Of a stretch of DNA of 64,000 bases, positions 8,800 through 50,201 are shown piece by piece. A program made the translations under genes and the position numbers. Position 1 is the first letter of the stretch, and each line of letters starts with the position of its first letter. Origin of the DNA: Patescibacteria group bacterium (GTDB lineage Bacteria > Patescibacteriota > Patescibacteriia > JAHJFT01); NCBI GenBank assembly GCA_028710985.1, contig JAQTTB010000001.1:587014-651013 (forward strand), read 5' to 3'. The notes beneath the pieces are model-generated. The model saw nothing but the letters and a program-made list of their open reading frames with translations. It ran no database searches and was not told the origin of the DNA.

Positions 8800-8873
8800 G
8801 GGGGCGTAATTCAGTGGCAGAATGTCGGTCTCCAAAACCGAATACGTGGGTTCGATTCCTACCGCCCCTGCCA
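8800..8873 (+). tRNA. tRNA-Trp (anticodon CCA)
   Basis: Acceptor stem gggggcg/cgcccct, anticodon loop ctCCAaa, T-loop ggttcgattcc, CCA. Confidence 0.8.
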
Positions 8874-8907
8874 AAAAATTCATCCCGATCGCGGGGTGAA
8901 TTTTTTG
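8874..8907 (+). terminator. rho-independent terminator after tRNA-Trp
   Basis: Hairpin ttcatcccgatcgcggggtgaa followed by TTTTTT. Confidence 0.5.
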
Positions 8908-8917
8908 ATATAGCAAA

Positions 8918-9018
8918 GGTAGGAATCGAAGGGCGCGAGAACCCCGACGAAATGTCGGGGTGGTGCGCAGCGCCCCGGACCGCGAGTCGGAGCGAGCGGG
9001 ATTCCTACCGCCCCTGCC
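8918..9018 (+). repeat. stem-loop built from an inverted plus a direct copy of the tRNA-Trp 3' end
   Basis: ggtaggaatcgaa (reverse complement of the T-arm) ... GC-rich loop ... gattcctaccgcccctgcca (identical to the tRNA-Trp 3' end); followed by hairpin aatcccgactttcgtcgggatt (9062-9083), the same hairpin family as at 8019. Confidence 0.55.
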
Positions 9019-9104
9019 AAAAAATCCTCTCGTAAGAAAGGTTTTTTTGTTTTAACAAAGAATCCCGACTTTCGTCGGGATTCTCTTAAGATCGAGCTAT
9101 CCAA

Positions 9105-9284
9105 TTAGTATTGTCTTGGAGGTCGATTTTTTCGCATTTCGCGATGGCAGTCTTTGCAGAGCAGCCGATCGAGACGGGCCGGATCCGGTTCAAAAGGCAG
9201 TTCTGTGATCTCGGCTCCGCATTTGGAGCAGACCCAGGTGCCCTTGAACATCTGGCGCGGTGCGAAATTGTTGTCGCTGTACAT
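9105..9284 (-). CDS. small CxxC-x20-CxxC zinc-ribbon protein (59 aa; not in the ORF track)
   Basis: Minus-strand translation MYSDNNFAPRQMFKGTWVCSKCGAEITELPFEPDPARLDRLLCKDCHREMRKNRPPRQY; resembles the CxxC-x17-CxxC small protein family. Confidence 0.5.
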   Translation of the reverse strand: MYSDNNFAPRQMFKGTWVCSKCGAEITELPFEPDPARLDRLLCKDCHREMRKNRPPRQY

Positions 9285-9498
9285 TTTCGTTGACCTTATG
9301 TTTTGCTCTTCTTAACCATCCAAGACATTAATATATGTAAATATATAATACGGATTATTAAGCTTACGCAAAACTTATGAATTATGAGCCTATTATAGCA
9401 CAATAGTCCATATCTGTCAAGCCGCCGCGGGGCGCTCGCTGTTGATTCGCGCAATTGGCGTATCAAGTCTTTTCGGATATAATAATAACATATTTTTT

Positions 9499-11205
9499 AT
9501 GTCAGCGATTTTCATACAACTAAGTTTGGTTTTGGCCGTGGCAGTGGCGGCTTCACTCATCATGAGGTTACTGCGTCAACCGCTCATCATCGGCTATATC
9601 ATCACCGGCATCATCGTCGGGCCGATGGTCCTGGGTTTGGTGCGGCAGGGCGATTCGATTGAGGCGTTTGCCCACATCGGGGTCGCACTGCTTCTTTTTA
9701 TTGTCGGCTTGGGGCTTCATCCTAAAATGATTCGCGATGTCGGGGGAGTGGCGGTGGTGACCGGACTCGGACAGATTATATTTACCACGGTCATCGGCTG
9801 GGTAATCGGTGTTTTGCTCGGCTATGCGTCGCTCACCGCGCTATATCTTGCGTTCGCTTTCACGATGAGCAGCACCATTATTATTTTGCGCCTCTTGCAT
9901 GCCAAGGAAGACCAGGATACACTCTACGGCCGGATTGCCATCGGATTCCTTCTGGTGCAGGACTTTGTCGCCATGATTGTTTTTATGGTTCTTGCGAGCG
10001 CGCGTGGTGGCGGTCCACCCGAAATGCTGATTCTTTCCGTGTTTTTGAAAATCGTAGTTGTTGTTGCCGTGCTCTTGATGCTGGTCAAGTTCATCGTGCC
10101 GCTCATCGACCGTTTCTTGGCGCCGAGCAGCGAGTTATTATTTATTTTTGCGATCAGCGTTTGTTTTATTTTCGCCAGCCTATTTGAATATTTTGATTTT
10201 TCTCGCGAACTCGGCGCGCTCGTTGCCGGTTTGGCGCTTTCGTTTTCGCCCTGCCACCGCGAAATGGCGACGCGGCTCAAACCGCTCCGGGATTTTTTCC
10301 TGGTCGCATTTTTTATCGTGCTCGGCGCGGGTATGAGCCTTGTTGATATTGAAAAATCAATCCCCATGATCGTGTTTTTTTCGGCATTCATACTGATCGG
10401 CAATCCGCTTATTGTCTATCTCATAATGACGTGCATGGGTTATACCAAGAAAACCAGCTTTTTCGCCGGGCTCACGGTCGCGCAGATCAGTGAATTCTCG
10501 CTTATACTTCTCGGCATGGGCGTGTCTCTTGGCCACATTCCGGCAAGCATCGTCGGGCCGGCAACCGTGGTTGGCGTTCTCACGATCGGCATCTCTACTT
10601 ACATGATAATGCACAATCACACCCTGTATCGCATTTTGGAAAGATTTCTTTCATTCCTTGCGCCGTGGCATAAACCGACGCGGGAAAAAGGCGCCGCATT
10701 CCGCCCTAAAAAGATTGACGTTCTTGTTCTCGGCAGCCATCGCCTGGGTGGCGGCATCGTGAATATGCTCAAAGAGCTGAAAGTAAATTTTCTAGTTATT
10801 GATCACGATCCGCTGGTTATTCACGCGTTGGAAAAACAAAAAGTTCCGGCCGTCTTCGGCTCGGCCGACGATATTTCGTTTTTGGATCATCTTCCGCTCA
10901 AAGAGACGCGCCTCATTATTTCAACCATACCTGACGTTGAGACAAATGAATTCTTGGTTCATTATGCCAAGACCGCCGCGCCAGCGGCCAATGTTGTCTG
11001 CGTGGCCAATCATGCGTCGCACGCCAAGAATTTATATGACGCCGGTGCCGCCTATGTGGTAATGCCGCCGTATCTTGGCCGAAAATATATTATTGATCTC
11101 GTGAAGCGAAATCGTTTGGATCCGTCAAAATATCGTGAAGAAAAAGCCTGCCACATTAAAGATTTAAGATACATTGGAAACGGTGCGAATTCGGACGGGG
11201 ATTAG
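9499..11205 (+). CDS. Kef-type K+/H+ antiporter (CPA2) with C-terminal RCK/TrkA-N domain
   Basis: About 12 TM helices then Rossmann motif VLVLGSHRLGGGIV. Confidence 0.8.
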   Translation: MSAIFIQLSLVLAVAVAASLIMRLLRQPLIIGYIITGIIVGPMVLGLVRQGDSIEAFAHIGVALLLFIVGLGLHPKMIRDVGGVAVVTGLGQIIFTTVIGWVIGVLLGYASLTALYLAFAFTMSSTIIILRLLHAKEDQDTLYGRIAIGFLLVQDFVAMIVFMVLASARGGGPPEMLILSVFLKIVVVVAVLLMLVKFIVPLIDRFLAPSSELLFIFAISVCFIFASLFEYFDFSRELGALVAGLALSFSPCHREMATRLKPLRDFFLVAFFIVLGAGMSLVDIEKSIPMIVFFSAFILIGNPLIVYLIMTCMGYTKKTSFFAGLTVAQISEFSLILLGMGVSLGHIPASIVGPATVVGVLTIGISTYMIMHNHTLYRILERFLSFLAPWHKPTREKGAAFRPKKIDVLVLGSHRLGGGIVNMLKELKVNFLVIDHDPLVIHALEKQKVPAVFGSADDISFLDHLPLKETRLIISTIPDVETNEFLVHYAKTAAPAANVVCVANHASHAKNLYDAGAAYVVMPPYLGRKYIIDLVKRNRLDPSKYREEKACHIKDLRYIGNGANSDGD

Positions 11206-43401: not shown

Positions 43402-45171
43402 ATGAACAATCTCCGCAACTTTTGCATCATTGCCCATATCGACCACGGTAAGTCCACGCTGGCTGACCGTTTTTTAGAATTAACAGGCACGGTTGATAAA
43501 AGAAAAATGAAAGAGCAGATTCTGGACAGCATGGATCTTGAGCGCGAAAAGGGGATCACCATCAAACTCCAGCCCGTGCGCATGGAATACGAGGGATATA
43601 TTTTAAATCTGATTGACACTCCCGGGCATGTTGATTTTAATTACGAAGTTTCGCGGTCATTGGCCGCGGTTGAGGGCGCGATTCTCTTGGTTGACGCGAC
43701 CCAGGGCGTGCAGGCGCAGACACTCGGCAATCTGTATATGGCCCTGGAGCAGAATCTCGCCATCATTCCGGTATTGAATAAAATTGATCTGCAAAATGCC
43801 GATGTCGAACGCTGCCGCGAGGAGCTCGTGAAACTCATCGGCTGTAAGCGCGAAGAGATTTTTGAAGTTTCGGCCAAGACCGGCAAAAATGTTGAACAAG
43901 TACTCCGGGCTGTGATTCGCGAAGTTCCGCCCCCGTTCGGCGAGGCGTCCGCTCCCCTCCAAGCTTTAATTTTCGATTCCGACTACGATGAATATAAAGG
44001 CGTTGTCGCCGACGTGCGTTTGAAAAACGGGGAGCTGTATCCCGGTGACCGCATCCGGCTCGTCGGCACCGCCGCGCCGACCGAAGCGCTTGAAGTCGGA
44101 TATTTCCGGCCCCAGCTTGTGAAATCCGCCAAACTCGCGGCCGGCGACATCGGTTACATCGTCACGAGCCTTCGGACGATCAAGGATTGCCGCGTCGGCG
44201 ATACCATCACCCTGGAAAGCAATCCGGCGGCGCTTCTGCCCGGATACAAAGAGGTCAGGCCCATGGTTTATGCCGGCATTTTTCCGCGCGACGGCGCCGA
44301 GTACGCCCGCCTGCGCGAGGCCATGGACAAGTTAAAATTAAATGACGCGGCCCTCGCTTTTGAACCCGAACGCTCGCAGGCGCTCGGCTTCGGCTTCCGT
44401 TGCGGGCTCCTCGGCATGCTTCATCTTGAAATCGTGCAAGAGCGGCTCCGGCGCGAATACAATCTGGATCTCGTGGTCACCATTCCGTCGGTGGCTTACA
44501 AAATATTTGACACCAAGGGAGAAGAGATTACCATCAAGTCCGCGCAGGAGATGCCCGACCCGTCGCGCGTTGAGCATATCGAAGAGCCGTGGGTGAGCGT
44601 GGACATCGTTACCCCCAAAGAGTTTGTCGGCAATATCATGTCGCTCGTCTCCGAACGCCGCGGCATTTACAAAAACACCGAATATCTGGATCCGAGCCGC
44701 ACGATTATGCATTATGACATTCCGCTCGCCGCCGTGATTGTTGATTTTTACGATAAACTTAAGAGCGCGTCATCCGGATACGCTTCGTTAAATTACGAAT
44801 TCATCGGCTATCGCCAGGCCAAGATAATCAAGCTCACGATCCTGGTGGCCGAAGAAACGGTTGAAGCCCTGTCCATGCTTGTGCCCGAAGATGAAGCCTA
44901 CCGCGAAGGCAAGCGCATCGTCACCCTGCTCAAAGAAAGCCTGCCGCGCCAGCAGTTTGTCATCAAAATTCAGGCCGCGATCGGCGGCAAGATTATCGCC
45001 GCCGAGCGGCTTTCCGCCTTCCGCAAGGATGTCATCGCCAAACTCTACGGCGGGGACGTCACGCGCAAAAACAAACTTCTGGAAAAACAGAAAAAGGGAA
45101 AGAAAAAAATGATGTCCCGCGGCCACGTGGAAATCCCGACTGAAACATTTTTGAAAGTACTTAAAAGATAA
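43402..45171 (+). CDS. lepA: elongation factor 4
   Basis: NFCIIAHIDHGKSTLADR G-domain and LepA C-terminal domain. Confidence 0.92.
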   Translation: MNNLRNFCIIAHIDHGKSTLADRFLELTGTVDKRKMKEQILDSMDLEREKGITIKLQPVRMEYEGYILNLIDTPGHVDFNYEVSRSLAAVEGAILLVDATQGVQAQTLGNLYMALEQNLAIIPVLNKIDLQNADVERCREELVKLIGCKREEIFEVSAKTGKNVEQVLRAVIREVPPPFGEASAPLQALIFDSDYDEYKGVVADVRLKNGELYPGDRIRLVGTAAPTEALEVGYFRPQLVKSAKLAAGDIGYIVTSLRTIKDCRVGDTITLESNPAALLPGYKEVRPMVYAGIFPRDGAEYARLREAMDKLKLNDAALAFEPERSQALGFGFRCGLLGMLHLEIVQERLRREYNLDLVVTIPSVAYKIFDTKGEEITIKSAQEMPDPSRVEHIEEPWVSVDIVTPKEFVGNIMSLVSERRGIYKNTEYLDPSRTIMHYDIPLAAVIVDFYDKLKSASSGYASLNYEFIGYRQAKIIKLTILVAEETVEALSMLVPEDEAYREGKRIVTLLKESLPRQQFVIKIQAAIGGKIIAAERLSAFRKDVIAKLYGGDVTRKNKLLEKQKKGKKKMMSRGHVEIPTETFLKVLKR

Positions 45172-45183
45172 ATTTTTTTAATT

Positions 45184-45873
45184 ATGCCATTAAATATAAG
45201 CTATAGTGCAGAATTTGAAAAACGAAGAATAAAAAACACGATTAAAAAATTGTCTTGGTATAAAAAATTAGGGTACTCGCCCTGTTTCCCGAAAAATATT
45301 AATCCCCAAAATGATAATTTAAAAAAAATATACGCCGCTTTTAAAAATGAATACGACGAGGCAGATTATAAAAGAGCCGCTAGGGAGATTAACGAAAAAT
45401 TTTCTAAAATTGAAAGTACTTTTTACGATAAGCTAGAGAAAATATGCGGTAAAAAAATCAAAAGAAATTTTAAATTGATACTTACTAAATATGGCGTTGG
45501 CGGTTCTTATTCATCGCCAAATACAATAATATTCAACATTAAATGGAAGTTTTCAAACTCGGTTAATATAGTTTTGCATGAAATTACGCACCTAGTAATT
45601 GAACCGCACATAAAAAAATATCAAGTTCAACATAATGAAAAAGAACGGATAGTCGATTTGATTTTGACATCAAAGCCCATTGGATTGAAAAATTATAAAA
45701 TGCAACAAAGAGGAGAAGAATATAAGAAATTTTTTGACCCGCTATTTAAAAAATATTTTAAACCGCCCATAGGCAGTTTTTTTAAAAAATTAGCACGACT
45801 ACACAGAAATCCTTCCCTGCCCCTCCCTCCTGCCTGCCGACAGGCAGGTTATAAAGGGAGGGGACCGGAATAG
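45184..45873 (+). CDS. AT-rich hypothetical protein with HEITH (HExxH) motif; 3' end runs into GC-rich hairpins
   Basis: ~30% GC ORF against a ~52% background; LHEITHLV; the C-terminal ~20 codons coincide with palindromes cctgcctgccgacaggcagg and cccctcctt...aaggagggg. Confidence 0.45.
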   Translation: MPLNISYSAEFEKRRIKNTIKKLSWYKKLGYSPCFPKNINPQNDNLKKIYAAFKNEYDEADYKRAAREINEKFSKIESTFYDKLEKICGKKIKRNFKLILTKYGVGGSYSSPNTIIFNIKWKFSNSVNIVLHEITHLVIEPHIKKYQVQHNEKERIVDLILTSKPIGLKNYKMQQRGEEYKKFFDPLFKKYFKPPIGSFFKKLARLHRNPSLPLPPACRQAGYKGRGPE

Positions 45874-45953
45874 CACGGCCGCAGTATCTTGTTCCCCTCC
45901 TTAATAAAGGAGGGGAAAGGGGAGGATTTTACAAGTGGATTTTAGAACAGCGC

Positions 45954-46317
45954 ATGAAATATTATCCGACCTACAATTCAAAATTAAAACCAACGGCACG
46001 CGTTTTGCGGAACAGTATGACTCCCGCGGAAATACTTCTCTGGTCAGGGTTGAAAGCCAAGCAATTCTGCGGATTGCAATTTTACCGGCAGCGTCCGCTC
46101 GGCAATTATATTGTTGATTTTTATTGCCCCGCCAAAAAGCTCGTGATTGAAGTTGATGGCGGGCATCATTGTTATGATGACAAGCAGGTCGCGAACGACA
46201 AAAAGAGACGCTTATCTTAAAAAAGTTTTTAAATTAAAAATATTGCGATTTAATAATGTTGATATCTTGAATAGCATTGACGAAGTGCTCGAGAGAATTG
46301 CGGAACAAATATATTGA
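45954..46317 (+). pseudogene. DUF559 (Vsr-like endonuclease domain) gene with a frameshift in an A-run
   Basis: Frame 1 (45954-46220) gives LLWSGLKAKQFCGLQFYRQRPLGNYIVDFYCPAKKLVIEVDGGHH...DKKRRLS*; the conserved C-terminus LKKVFKLKILRFNNVDILNSIDEVLERI continues in the +1 frame to 46317; the shift falls in ttaaaaaag near 46215. Confidence 0.6.
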
Positions 46318-46340
46318 TATATTTAGCAAAATAATATAAT
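46313..46340 (+). promoter_or_regulatory. promoter-like element (TTGATA-15-TATAAT) for the 46407 gene
   Basis: ttgata tatttagcaaaataa tataat; the spacer is a bit short. Confidence 0.35.
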
Positions 46341-46406
46341 GTAACTTTACATCGCAGACGATTTATACTTCACGGTTATCTAGCCGTGAGAAAAAAGGAG
46401 GAGGCC

Positions 46407-46859
46407 ATGGAGCAGGATCAGCGCGATAAGTATTTGGCTGCGGTTGACCGGTTCAAGCCGCACCTAGTTGACTGGAGCAGGCGCATCCGTGTACTCGCGG
46501 CCGACGAGGAGGCGCGCGGCAAGGCCGAATACGAGCGCGTTATGAGCGAGGGAGAAACCCGGCCCGGTGATGGAATCATAGCCGAGGTTTGGCCCTATGC
46601 CAGACTCAAAACTAATCACGAGTTCATGGTGCGCGAAAGCGAGCTCAGTATCTTCGGCAAGGAGGACAGCTGGCGCCGGCCGTGGAGCGACGTCGAGGAA
46701 GACGGGCGCAATGCGTTCTTCAAGCTCTTTCTCGGGCATGTGCCCATGTGCCACTTCCGTGGGTCAAGCGATGCCGCCATGCCTGACTTCCGCGTCCTGC
46801 TCATCGGCCTCCTGGAGGATGATGCCAAATTCATCCAAGTGCTGGAGGGGAGGAGCTAG
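46407..46859 (+). CDS. hypothetical protein (150 aa), ORFan cassette 1 of the lepA-recJ island
   Basis: AGGAGG 6 nt upstream of ATG; ~60% GC; own terminator at 46888-46922. Confidence 0.5.
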   Translation: MEQDQRDKYLAAVDRFKPHLVDWSRRIRVLAADEEARGKAEYERVMSEGETRPGDGIIAEVWPYARLKTNHEFMVRESELSIFGKEDSWRRPWSDVEEDGRNAFFKLFLGHVPMCHFRGSSDAAMPDFRVLLIGLLEDDAKFIQVLEGRS

Positions 46860-46887
46860 CCTCACGCGGCTCAAGACATCCTAACTC

Positions 46888-46922
46888 GACCCATTTGCCA
46901 AGAGCAAGTGGGTCTTTTTTTT
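46888..46922 (+). terminator. rho-independent terminator
   Basis: gacccatttgccaagagcaagtgggtc + T9. Confidence 0.65.
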
Positions 46923-46938
46923 ATGAAAAGGCGAGCGG

Positions 46939-46967
46939 TTGACAAAATATCACATTTATGATATTAT
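46939..46967 (+). promoter_or_regulatory. textbook sigma70 promoter (TTGACA-17-TATTAT)
   Basis: ttgaca aaatatcacatttatga tattat. Confidence 0.55.
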
Positions 46968-46990
46968 AGTCAGTTTTAAAGGAGGATAAG

Positions 46991-47362
46991 ATGAGCCGCA
47001 AGCACAAAGAGGCGATAGCTCACCTGAAGGCGATCGGGGTGATACGAGGATACGACATCAAGTCAAAGCTCCCCGAGCTAGAGAGGACGTCCACCTTCCT
47101 GCGGTTCCCACCGCCTCCGGATTTTCTAAGAGTGGACCCTTCTACCGATCGGGCGGTGATGGACGAGGTTCTGCTGCGAGAACGCGCCTCACTTCATGCC
47201 ATGTGGGCAAGGGAGTTTGATCAGGGGATGGCGATGGAAGACCGTCGTATCGCCATGTGTGAGTACGAAGAAGGGCCGAGAGAGGCCCTCATGAAGCCGC
47301 CCTGGTACAAGCGCCTGCTGGTTCGTCTCGGAATGGCCAAGTCTCCGCGAATCGAGCCCTAG
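46991..47362 (+). CDS. hypothetical protein (123 aa), ORFan cassette 2
   Basis: AAAGGAGG RBS; own promoter and terminator. Confidence 0.5.
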   Translation: MSRKHKEAIAHLKAIGVIRGYDIKSKLPELERTSTFLRFPPPPDFLRVDPSTDRAVMDEVLLRERASLHAMWAREFDQGMAMEDRRIAMCEYEEGPREALMKPPWYKRLLVRLGMAKSPRIEP

Positions 47363-47417
47363 CGAAGCAAAAGCTACTCTCCGATCATATTGAATACATC
47401 ATCGATGCCTGCTCAAG

Positions 47418-47450
47418 CGCCATCGCACCTCTGCGACGGCGTCTTTTTTT
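47418..47450 (+). terminator. rho-independent terminator
   Basis: cgccatcgcacctctgcgacggcg + tcTTTTTTT. Confidence 0.6.
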
Positions 47451-47494
47451 CTGCATAATTTTGTGCTAAGCTCATAAATAGAGGAGGAGATACG

Positions 47495-47770
47495 ATGAAT
47501 TATTCCAGCCTGGACGAAGCTTATCTTGCCTTGGAGAGAATGCGTAAAGAGCGAGAAACTGCGCTTACGAAAGAGGAGAAGGATAAGCTGGACATGGATA
47601 TCGCATACCTTCGGCACGAGATTAGAAGTGCTTCCTCGGAGGAAGTCCTATACGCGCGTTGGGGCGATAGCGACTTCGACGAGCCTGACGACTCCGACGG
47701 GTTCTGCGACCCTGACGGACCCTATGACTTCGACGAGTTCGCGGGAGACGGCGACGGAGGCTGTCTCTAG
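47495..47770 (+). CDS. hypothetical acidic protein (91 aa): N-terminal helical region, Asp/Glu/Gly-rich C-terminal tail; ORFan cassette 3
   Basis: GAGGAGG RBS; tail DSDFDEPDDSDGFCDPDGPYDFDEFAGDGDGG. Confidence 0.5.
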   Translation: MNYSSLDEAYLALERMRKERETALTKEEKDKLDMDIAYLRHEIRSASSEEVLYARWGDSDFDEPDDSDGFCDPDGPYDFDEFAGDGDGGCL

Positions 47771-47824
47771 GAAGAAATTCCTGAACTTGAAGAGGGCTAT
47801 GGAGAAGTGAGCCAGCGCCTGTCT

Positions 47825-47853
47825 TTGACAATTTCCGCAAAATGATGTAGCTT
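47825..47853 (+). promoter_or_regulatory. sigma70-like promoter (TTGACA-17-TAGCTT) driving a non-coding region
   Basis: ttgaca atttccgcaaaatgatg tagctt. Confidence 0.45.
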
Positions 47854-47859
47854 TTAAAT

Positions 47860-48155
47860 ATTCAAGGAGAGCCTCGAGAGGGACCCGCACACCTCTGGAT
47901 GCCGAGACTTTCCAGAGCTGCCAAAAGAGGGCACGCAGAGAGGAGCTCTGGCCAGCGAACCTTTCCTTCCGGAGAACCCATCAGTATCGGGCGCTGCGTT
48001 TCCTGTATGCGGTTTCCGGTATGCGTGGGAGTGGAGGAAATGGCCACCAATAATCTCTGCACCTTATTTTGTTCCTTTCTTGATGTTATCCGTCGCCCTT
48101 GCGATGGAACCGTTTCGTCATGTCCTGCCTTGCCTTCAAGTCGGGACTTTTTTTA
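47860..48155 (+). ncRNA. candidate structured non-coding RNA (~300 nt, GC-rich, promoter to T-run)
   Basis: No RBS-preceded ORF; the only ORF (47899-48162) is Cys-rich, low-complexity and lacks an SD; the region ends in a T7 run at 48148-48154; no known RNA family recognised. Confidence 0.3.
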
Positions 48156-48230
48156 TCTATAATTTTTTATGGCGTTGTTACGGCGAACTCATTGCCCTAT
48201 ATCCCGTCGTATAGTAAAATATAACTGCTT

Positions 48231-48338
48231 ATGAGACCAAGGCATATAAAATTAATAAAAAGACTAGTGATTCTGGTATTTTTTTTGTTTATAATTTTGA
48301 GTACCATCCTTTGGACAATGGCCCCACTGTTTTACTAA
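48231..48338 (+). CDS. possible 35-aa hydrophobic peptide (MRPRHIKLIKRLVILVFFLFIILSTILWTMAPLFY)
   Basis: Short ORF with one TM-like segment in the AT-rich spacer; no RBS; very tentative. Confidence 0.2.
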   Translation: MRPRHIKLIKRLVILVFFLFIILSTILWTMAPLFY

Positions 48339-48343
48339 TATGA

Positions 48344-48408
48344 GAGCGTTGAATATTTATGAAACGCCCTCATCCCGAGTTCCGATCGCAATCGGGACGA
48401 GGGATCTA
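48344..48408 (+). promoter_or_regulatory. Motif D copy upstream of recJ
   Basis: agcgttgaatatttatgaaacgc then cctcatcccgag ttccgatcgcaatcgggac gagggatct, followed by tattatact. Confidence 0.55.
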
Positions 48409-48476
48409 TTATACTCGCGGCAAGAAACATCGATTATAAAAGAGATGAATATTTTTAGTTATCCAACGGTCTAAAT

Positions 48477-50201
48477 ATGCGCAAGGCTTGGAAAATCGCC
48501 GAGGCCGTGAGCCCGGATTATTGCGCCCGGTTTCCGGAAATCTCACCGGTCGTGGTTCAGCTTCTGGCGAACCGTGGCCTTGAGAGCCAGGAGCAGATTG
48601 ACGAATTTTTGGCGCCGGATTTTACGCGGGATATTAAAGATCCTTTTTTATTTACGCGCATGCGCGACGCGGTTGAGCGCGTTTTTCAGGCGATTGAGGC
48701 GCGGGAAAAAATTACGGTCTGGAGCGATTACGACGCCGACGGCGTCACGAGCGGCACAATTGCGCGCTCGGTTATCCGCGAGGTCGGAGCAAAGTTGGGC
48801 TATGACGGCGAGCTGGTTGACTTTTACATTCCGCACCGCGACCTGGAAGGCTACGGCCTCAATCAGGCCGGGGTTGAAAGAATCGCCAAAGAGGGGTGCA
48901 AACTTCTGGTTGCCACGGATTGCGGCATCGGCAATGCCAATGAAATCGCCTGGCTCCGGAAAAAAGGAATCGATGTCATCGTAATCGACCACCACCAGGT
49001 GCCCGACCGCCTGCCGGACGCGATTATTATTCATACTTCAACGCCCGGTGAGATTTATCCGTTCAAGCCCTTTGCCGCGGCCGGCGTGGCGTTCAAATTT
49101 GCCTGCGCCCTGATTACCGCAGGGCGGGAGCGGGGGATTGATTTTTCTCCGGGTTTTGAAAAATGGTACCTGGATCTCGTGGCCATCGCCACGGTGACGG
49201 ACATGATGCCCCTCATCGGAGAGAACCGCACCCTGGAAAAGTTCGGGCTCGTGGTGCTCGCAAAAACGCGGCGGCCGGGCCTGCGCAAACTGTTTGAAGC
49301 CGCCGGCATCGCGTCCGAGAAGCTGGACACGCGTTCCATCGGATTTCAGATCGGGCCGCGCCTTAACGCCGCAAGCCGCATGGACCACGCCAATCAGGCA
49401 TTCGCGCTCCTCAATGCCGAAGACGAAAAACAAGCCGCCGAACTCGCGACAGAGCTTTGCTCATTGAATCAGCAGCGCCGGGACATCACCAAAGAAACAT
49501 ACGATCAGGCAATCGCGCAAATCGGCGATCCGGGCAACCGGAAAATTCTTTTCAGCCGGAATGAATCCTGGCCGCCGTCAATCGTCGGGCTGGTGGCCGG
49601 CAAAGTCTGCGATGATTACTATCGCCCGGTGATTCTCATCGGCCGCGAAGGGGAGAGGTGGCTTGGTTCGGGCCGGAGCATTCCCGAGTTTGACATTACT
49701 GCCGCCCTGCACTCGGCCGAAGAGCATCTGGCGCGCTTTGGCGGCCATCCCGGGGCCTGCGGCTTTGACATGAAGTCCGAGGCCGATATCGCGCCGTTTA
49801 TTGAAAAACTCACCAAATACGCCGAAGAGCGATTAGCCTGCGTCGCGCTCGCGCCGGCCATAAATATTGAGGCCGAATTGGGGCTCGATGAAACAAATTT
49901 TGATCTGGTGCACGCGCTCGCTGAATTCGCGCCGCACGGCATGAATAATCCCAAGCCCATATTTTTGGCGCGCGATCTCACGGTCGTGAGTTTTGAAACC
50001 ATGGGCATGGACCAAAAGCATCTGAAAATCGCGGTAAAGACTCCGGCCGGCGCCACAAAAAAATTAGTCGGTTTCGGCATCGCCGGCCGCATCTCCGAAC
50101 TCAAAGTCGGCGCCAAGCTTGAACTCGCTTACGAACTTGATATCAACCAGTGGAATGGGAATCAGGAGCTGCAATTTAAAATTATTGATTTTAAATTATG
50201 A
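48477..50201 (+). CDS. recJ: single-stranded-DNA-specific exonuclease RecJ
   Basis: DHH motifs (DYDADGV, ATDCGIGN, VIDHH) and DHHA1 domain. Confidence 0.9.
   Translation: MRKAWKIAEAVSPDYCARFPEISPVVVQLLANRGLESQEQIDEFLAPDFTRDIKDPFLFTRMRDAVERVFQAIEAREKITVWSDYDADGVTSGTIARSVIREVGAKLGYDGELVDFYIPHRDLEGYGLNQAGVERIAKEGCKLLVATDCGIGNANEIAWLRKKGIDVIVIDHHQVPDRLPDAIIIHTSTPGEIYPFKPFAAAGVAFKFACALITAGRERGIDFSPGFEKWYLDLVAIATVTDMMPLIGENRTLEKFGLVVLAKTRRPGLRKLFEAAGIASEKLDTRSIGFQIGPRLNAASRMDHANQAFALLNAEDEKQAAELATELCSLNQQRRDITKETYDQAIAQIGDPGNRKILFSRNESWPPSIVGLVAGKVCDDYYRPVILIGREGERWLGSGRSIPEFDITAALHSAEEHLARFGGHPGACGFDMKSEADIAPFIEKLTKYAEERLACVALAPAINIEAELGLDETNFDLVHALAEFAPHGMNNPKPIFLARDLTVVSFETMGMDQKHLKIAVKTPAGATKKLVGFGIAGRISELKVGAKLELAYELDINQWNGNQELQFKIIDFKL

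Follow-up and report, generated by a model that had tools for sequence, protein, structure and literature searches.

A promoter-to-terminator unit without coding signal at the end of a variable ORFan island in a Patescibacteria genome, a candidate small RNA

The DNA analysed here, a 64-kb stretch of the metagenome-assembled genome of an uncultured Patescibacteria group bacterium (NCBI GenBank assembly GCA_028710985.1, contig JAQTTB010000001.1, positions 587,014 to 651,013; hereafter the window, to which all positions refer), carries between lepA and recJ an island of ~1.8 kb with three ORFan genes. Each of these has its own Shine-Dalgarno (SD) sequence, 2/3 have their own terminator, and the middle one has a near-consensus promoter. 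The last module of the island, flagged in a preliminary description as a promoter-to-terminator non-coding stretch and a candidate novel structured RNA, is indeed attached to the ORFan cassettes, as that description held, and stands at their end. It lies where PGAP places no feature (47770 to 48477; from the acidic ORFan gene, 03110, by way of recJ, rnhA and a four-helix gene to a 635-aa gene, 03130, the series of locus tags and of protein accessions has no gap). The features recognised in the unit are these:

47825-47853, + strand: sigma-70-type promoter, with -35 box TTGACA at 47825-47830, a 17-nt spacer, -10 box TAGCTT at 47848-47853 and TG just upstream of it
47858-48211, + strand: stop-free frame of 118 codons with no start codon, reading through the terminator
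47860-48154, + strand: predicted non-coding transcript of ~295 nt
47864-47869, + strand: SD-like AAGGAG, 10 nt 3′ of the -10 box
47876-48079, + strand: predicted closed domain of 204 nt whose ends pair (GAGAGGGAC with GUUCCUUUC), with purine-rich tracts paired to C/U-rich tracts
47899-48162, + strand: open reading frame (ORF) of 87 aa with an ATG start and 7 Cys, two of them in a CxxC motif; not regarded as a gene
47935-48060, + strand: long imperfect hairpin at the core of the predicted fold, and its best-defined part
48081-48120, + strand: hairpin just 5′ of the terminator
48122-48154, + strand: predicted intrinsic terminator, a hairpin (GUCCUG.CUUG-CCUU-CAAG.CGGGAC, 48122-48147) followed by U7 (48148-48154)

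The -35 box is a perfect TTGACA, while the -10 box TAGCTT agrees with TATAAT at 3/6 positions (T1, A2 and T6), which is why the promoter was missing from a strict consensus scan. The preliminary description of a near-consensus pair therefore holds for the -35 box and for the spacing, and overstates the -10 box. The window has eight sites of the form TTGACA-N17-TANNNT, where shuffles lead one to expect 0.22 ± 0.44, an enrichment of ~36-fold. All seven other sites are intergenic, and 5/7 lie shortly upstream of an SD sequence and/or an ATG gene start; one is placed ~110 nt ahead of a 59-aa ORF, and the last precedes a longer stretch that is not translated. Several of them have similar TG-extended, TAAGCT-like -10 boxes. 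Because the pattern is enriched and the other sites are intergenic, mostly before gene starts, the promoter call for the flagged unit is accepted as an in silico assignment, and the implied start of transcription would fall at about 47860.

At the other end of the unit, the hairpin of 10 bp (ΔG -10.9 kcal/mol) directly before the U-run makes 48122-48154 a sound predicted intrinsic terminator; the T7 run had been recorded correctly in the preliminary description, which did not mention the hairpin in front of it. The 3′ 81 nt of the unit fold into two hairpins with z = -4.95.

A common module, ...CTTTTTTTnTnnATAATTTT, recurs at the junctions of the cassettes (47439-47462, 48143-48166 and 46905-46924), in which a TATAAT-like box comes immediately after the T-run of a terminator (repeat families D1 and D6). 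D1 occurs a third time at 48275-48298, inside a 35-aa ORF upstream of recJ, probably by coincidence in T-rich coding sequence.

Between promoter and terminator, no frame has the codon usage of a gene. A codon-usage log-likelihood trained on 30 long ORFs of the window gave +0.34 ± 0.11 per codon (minimum 0.03) for in-frame 100-codon windows of long ORFs, and the neighbouring genes, the three ORFans among them, had one positive frame each (0.12–0.33; 0.28 for the acidic gene). Over 47860-48160, six out of six frames were negative (-0.18 to -0.50 per codon), with -0.19 for the 87-aa ORF and -0.18 for the 118-codon frame, and sliding windows across the unit detected no consistent coding frame. The G+C contents of the three codon positions (GC1/2/3), which are 0.56/0.40/0.60 in genes and 0.63–0.65/0.39–0.43/0.63–0.75 in the ORFans, are inverted in the 87-aa ORF (0.49/0.575/0.49) and flat in the 118-codon frame. 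No ATG, GTG or TTG stands 4–11 nt after the AAGGAG at 47864-47869, a box that the preliminary description had passed over; its statement that no ORF is preceded by a ribosome-binding site was borne out, as no SD-led start (SD 4–11 nt upstream) was found for an ORF of any size on the + strand inside the unit. It was likewise right that the 87-aa ORF is Cys-rich and lacks an SD sequence, and wrong that this is the only long ORF, having missed the open frame of 118 codons.

Database searches agree with the codon statistics. The 87-aa ORF is called by none of the gene finders represented in the collections, has no homologue among 5.8 billion proteins (word index) or in viral contigs, and has no Pfam, PHROG, PADLOC or NCBIfam match; its AUG is predicted to lie at the edge of a stem, partly buried. 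Three weak HMMER matches to the 118-codon frame, from an exhaustive search of 1.84 billion representatives, were rejected as spurious, the matched proteins being internally repetitive and the scores summed over repeats. Measured against the criteria for a pseudogene, the unit has no recognisable similarity to an intact gene and no residual codon periodicity. The only gene-like trait by those criteria is a depletion of stop trinucleotides, with 9 in the six frames together (47860-48155) against 18.5 ± 2.9 in dinucleotide shuffles, a count as low as this being reached in 1.4% of genome windows (GC-corrected z -2.5), although no frame has a coding codon signal. By every test available, then, the flagged stretch reads as non-coding.

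The + strand of the unit folds with a minimum free energy of -110.9 kcal/mol (z = -3.0), compared with z = +1.15 for the - strand. The predicted ensemble is well defined (mean positional entropy 0.39; 14/97 pairs are G-U), and within it the 204-nt domain accounts for -81.5 kcal/mol (z -3.0) and the core hairpin for -55.2 kcal/mol (z -3.5), the latter with the lowest positional entropy, 0.11–0.19. Most of the helices join purine tracts (GGAGGAAA, GAGAGG) to C/U tracts (UUUCCUUCC). A background of 160 windows of 300 nt from the same 64 kb (80 positions, both strands) had a mean z of -0.66 (sd 1.6), and 7.5% of them had z ≤ -3.0 (5% once the tRNA cluster is left out). The many local complementarities of the preliminary description are thus real in terms of free energy and overstated as a distinguishing mark. 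The sole unusual trait of the fold is its strand asymmetry in z, which at 4.15 is above that of all 80 background positions (sd 1.3).

No known RNA family accounts for this fold. A scan of the whole window at Rfam gathering thresholds (Rfam 15) recovered five tRNAs elsewhere and nothing in the unit, and at E ≤ 10 three nested ranges around 47850-48165 gave no match in the unit to the families covered, among them 6S, tmRNA, RNase P, SRP, riboswitches, T-box, OLE, ROOL, GOLLD, HEARO and raiA. ARAGORN detected no tRNA or tmRNA gene in 47000-49000. The earlier failure to recognise RNase P, tmRNA, SRP or 6S RNA is confirmed by these scans, and neither of two findings that the preliminary description had named as counting against its proposal was made, namely a match to a housekeeping RNA in the region (where the five tRNAs are the only ones) and conservation of the 87-aa ORF at the protein level. 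Comparison of the whole RNA with 58 translation-initiation regions by RNAduplex produced giant-loop artefacts only.

No stretch of the 64 kb gave a more extreme fold z than the 300 nt from 8801 on (-7 to -8). The tRNA at 8800-8870 has its 3′ end (8850-8875, ...GATTCCTACCGCCCCTGCCA followed by an A-run, + strand) repeated ~145 nt downstream, at 8996-9020, and the repeat may have been left by an element that integrated at this tRNA gene. A promoter close by, at 9392-9420 on the - strand, was considered as the lead into an ORF-free structured region and rejected, because it precedes a 59-aa CxxC ORF (9105-9284, - strand). That ORF, zinc-ribbon-like with two CxxC pairs, lies behind a perfect TTGACA-17-TATAAT promoter with TG and has hairpins 3′ of it; it was too short to appear in the ORF listing, which started at 100 aa.

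The genes and other features around the unit, from lepA onwards, are as follows:

43402-45171: lepA, the gene 5′ of the variable gap
between lepA and the DUF559 gene: gene for a 229-aa hypothetical protein
45954-46220, + strand: truncated DUF559 gene (Vsr-like endonuclease), 88 aa
46386-46859: first ORFan, 157 aa
46991-47362: second ORFan, 123 aa
47495-47770, + strand: third ORFan, a 91-aa acidic protein (PHW53_03110), directly upstream of the flagged unit
47771-47797, + strand: segment right after the stop codon of the acidic gene, able to pair with 48128-48154 and so to enclose the unit
between the flagged unit and recJ: AT-rich spacer
48231-48338, + strand: unannotated 35-aa hydrophobic ORF (MRPRHIKLIKRLVILVFFLFIILSTILWTMAPLFY), directly upstream of recJ
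48477-50201: recJ, followed by rnhA and then by a four-helix-bundle (23S IVP) gene

The ORFans deserve the name: the 91-aa acidic protein, whose contig is 744,538 bp long, is a singleton among the 5.8 billion proteins, the 123-, 157- and 229-aa proteins are the sole members of their 90% clusters, and a search of all local ORFs with Pfam, PHROGs, PADLOC and NCBIfam recognised the DUF559 fragment alone. The latter has 88 aa against 118 aa in one relative (locus L011), to whose copy its DNA is 69% identical over 332 nt. NCBI probably treats the ORF as a pseudogene, since no protein accession for its locus tag (03095) stands between MDD4995419 and MDD4995420.

Relatives available for comparison are not close. 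In the nearest, found by protein search, RecJ is 60–63% identical (best 63%), and a scan of GTDB representatives gave one, at 34%. Four syntenic loci (L004, L007, L010 and L011) keep the order lepA...recJ-rnhA-...pilM and have other genes in the lepA-recJ gap, either a Ser hydrolase, a CHU_C protein, a 79–85-aa zinc-ribbon protein and a 66–69-aa protein, or DUF559 and a 133-aa membrane protein. Genes turn over unusually fast in the gap (45172-48476) in this clade, with a different set of small genes in each relative and syntenic flanks. No counterpart of 46386-48165 was found in the four loci by blastn, tblastx or blastp, so that island and unit are both absent, a fact missing from the preliminary description. 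In all four, a terminator occupies the corresponding position, shortly before the promoter of the 35-aa ORF. At the position equivalent to the unit, L010 (~2350-2420) has an AGGAGG-led mini-ORF of 10 codons (TTG start, MISFNPQFFT) that runs into the terminator before the 35-aa ORF.

Wider searches were equally barren. A single-sequence covariance model of the core hairpin, run against 176 kb (the window plus 112 kb of the relatives' loci), matched itself only; no paralogue of the unit was found in the window by blastn, nhmmer or tblastx; blastn against phage and plasmid records returned chance matches of 22–31 nt only; and the ORFans, both open frames and two DNA patterns had no match in scans of viral and metagenome contigs. 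Logan contigs from two runs were 100% identical to the window, leaving no population variation to use, and exact-protein look-ups gave the same organism only. Since it is absent from the relatives and from every collection searched, the flagged unit is taken to be lineage-specific, like the ORFans that it follows.

The explanation that we favour, tentatively and at somewhat less than even confidence, is that the unit is an expressed, young, island-borne, stand-alone non-coding small RNA (sRNA) unit, neither a protein gene nor a member of a known RNA family. The sigma-70-type promoter would start an RNA near 47860; this would extend for ~295 nt, end at the intrinsic terminator and stay untranslated. 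Folding on the + strand only, it would form the closed 204-nt domain, in which purine-rich (SD-like) tracts pair with C/U-rich tracts, and then two 3′ hairpins, the last being the terminator. The promoter class, the terminator, the lack of coding signal and the lack of homologues were established in silico; we infer that an RNA is made from the unit, that it adopts the predicted fold and that it has some function. It is improbable, in our estimate, that this is a functional structured RNA of ~295 nt unique to this Patescibacteria lineage, a new RNA without a family. Such an RNA could, for example, be a decoy, its SD-like 5′ end and its internal SD/anti-SD-like helices engaging ribosomes or an ORFan-encoded RNA-binding protein; a trans-acting or decoy role through the exposed SD-like 5′ end is only a guess.

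Several observations weigh against the favoured explanation. A fold z of -3.0 is ordinary here, at the 5th–8th percentile of the genome's own windows, and because the helices pair purine with pyrimidine tracts, part of the fold signal may be compositional. Relatives have neither island nor unit, and no homologue was found in any collection searched, hence neither covarying base pairs nor a sign of purifying selection. An SD-like box right after the start, followed by a stop-free frame of 118 codons, is more like a former gene than an sRNA, as is the depletion of stop trinucleotides. Moreover, the stretch could be the 3′ tail of the acidic gene, which lacks a terminator of its own. Status as a conserved structured RNA is not established: what survives of the novel structured RNA first proposed is a non-coding, unclassified unit bounded by promoter and terminator, its structure being backed only by the thermodynamics of a single sequence, ordinary against the background of this genome.

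The main rival, unlikely in our judgement but the one to be taken most seriously, is that the unit is the relic of a fourth ORFan cassette, which has kept promoter, SD sequence and terminator and has lost its start codon and perhaps part of its gene, and is now transcribed junk or a very young pseudogene without RNA function. The layout from promoter to SD-like box equals that of the neighbouring intact cassette (46939-46991), with the same 10 nt after the -10 box; the 118-codon frame is in phase with the start position which that box implies; stops are depleted; and the setting is an island of fast-turnover ORFans. Nevertheless, no frame has a codon score or GC3 periodicity, although two + frames are uninterrupted, and this disfavours a relic because the recent loss of a start codon should leave the coding signal intact. 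The open frame also crosses the terminator, and the unit resembles neither any protein nor the cassettes beside it.

Rather less probable is that the unit is a long 3′ untranslated tail of the 91-aa acidic gene, transcribed by read-through to 48122-48154, with the TTGACA incidental or part of a secondary internal promoter. The site scan lists no terminator-like site between 47770 and 47825, while the other two cassettes terminate 29–52 nt 3′ of their stop codons. In a variant, the original terminator of the acidic gene was split by an insertion of ~325 nt. This is hinted at by the segment 47771-47797, which resembles the local 5′ arm of the terminator and can pair with the terminator's distal half (48128-48154; ~20 bp, -23.0 kcal/mol). 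Only 11 loci in the 64 kb pair equally well, although the pairing was found post hoc and is marginal (p roughly 0.01–0.06). As regards an inserted element of the miniature inverted-repeat type, a possible duplicated terminator arm flanks the unit, no terminal inverted repeats were seen by eye and no second copy occurs in the 64 kb. The high specificity of the promoter pattern in this genome also argues for a separate start of transcription over read-through.

Two further proposals are very unlikely. The first is that the 87-aa ORF, or a 40-aa part inside it, encodes a small Cys-rich protein. It has in its favour an ATG-started frame ending just past the terminator U-run, the 7 Cys with their CxxC, and a 5-bp hairpin (AGAGG/CCUCU) that could bridge the distance between the SD-like box at 47864 and the AUG at 47899; the negative codon score and inverted GC1/2/3, the partly buried AUG, the absence of the ORF from every annotation source and the failure to find a homologue or family all speak against it. 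The second, the strong form of what was first proposed, is that the unit is the founding member of a genuinely new and conserved class of structured RNA. Folding specific to the + strand beyond all 80 background positions, a well-defined ensemble and the lack of a known family are what such a class would lead one to expect, but no second member occurs in the 64-kb window, in 112 kb of the relatives' syntenic DNA, in phage and plasmid records or in the viral and metagenome contig scans, and the syntenic site of every relative examined lacks it. Least probable of all is a cis-regulatory leader or attenuator for the 35-aa ORF and recJ, in which promoter, structured sensor (~260 nt) and conditional terminator would control the same-strand genes 77 nt on, as the 35-aa ORF has its own conserved TAAAAT box in all relatives, which have no such leader, scans at E ≤ 10 gave no match to a riboswitch, T-box or leader model, and the fold with the terminator blocked is 7 kcal/mol less favourable and brings out no specific antiterminator.

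The 35-aa ORF is itself conserved. It is 47–61% identical in 4/4 relatives examined (tblastx), with an invariant C-terminus, ...FWTMAPLF(Y/F), and is absent from NCBI annotation and from the protein collection. Its copies lie at:

L004: ~9891-9998
L007/L008: 9890-9997
L010: ~2449-2556
L011: ~1101-1208

Every copy has a TAAAAT box 9–11 nt before the ATG (10 nt in the window) and no SD sequence, which suggests that it is translated from a leaderless mRNA. For annotation of the clade, this conserved membrane ORF and its leaderless-type promoter may be of more use than the flagged unit. Between the 35-aa ORF and recJ there is a GC-rich hairpin (CCCTCATCCCGAGTTCCGATCGCAATCGGGACGAGGG, 48361-48416), whose sole Rfam match is at chance level (Corona_FSE, E = 1.7).

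If transcribed, the flagged unit would join a very short list of small RNA candidates reported from reduced Patescibacteria genomes, and would illustrate that variable islands can carry self-contained promoter-to-terminator modules, coding and non-coding. As a single orphan sequence without a comparative test, it opens no general question.

Four known systems invite comparison. Like riboswitch, T-box or attenuator leaders, the unit runs from a promoter through a region of predicted structure to a terminator, with same-strand genes beyond it; unlike them, it is followed by an ORF with a conserved box of its own, matches no model, has no clear antiterminator, and is absent in relatives that keep the downstream genes. 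It resembles 6S RNA (RF00013 and related) in having a predicted closed domain of ~200 nt, largely double-stranded, with paired 5′ and 3′ ends. It differs in matching no 6S model at E ≤ 10, in its side hairpin and in having no obvious large central bubble; moreover, 6S, as a housekeeping RNA, should be conserved throughout a clade, whereas the unit is in no relative examined. Like a decayed cassette or pseudogene in a variable island, its promoter, SD sequence and terminator frame a stop-poor stretch beside intact ORFan cassettes of the same design, although it has neither residual codon bias or periodicity nor similarity to any protein.

Stand-alone bacterial sRNA genes have their own sigma-70 promoter and Rho-independent terminator, are 50–400 nt long, and are often specific to a strain or island; we know of no described sRNA repertoire in Patescibacteria with which the unit could be compared. 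It departs from these genes in its SD-like box at the very 5′ end, in being known from sequence alone, and in that no target or protein partner can be proposed. In the remaining respects it is like them, with a predicted promoter of its own, a predicted intrinsic terminator, a length of ~295 nt, no translatable ORF and a place at the edge of a variable island, and, as with many island-borne sRNAs, it is not widely conserved.

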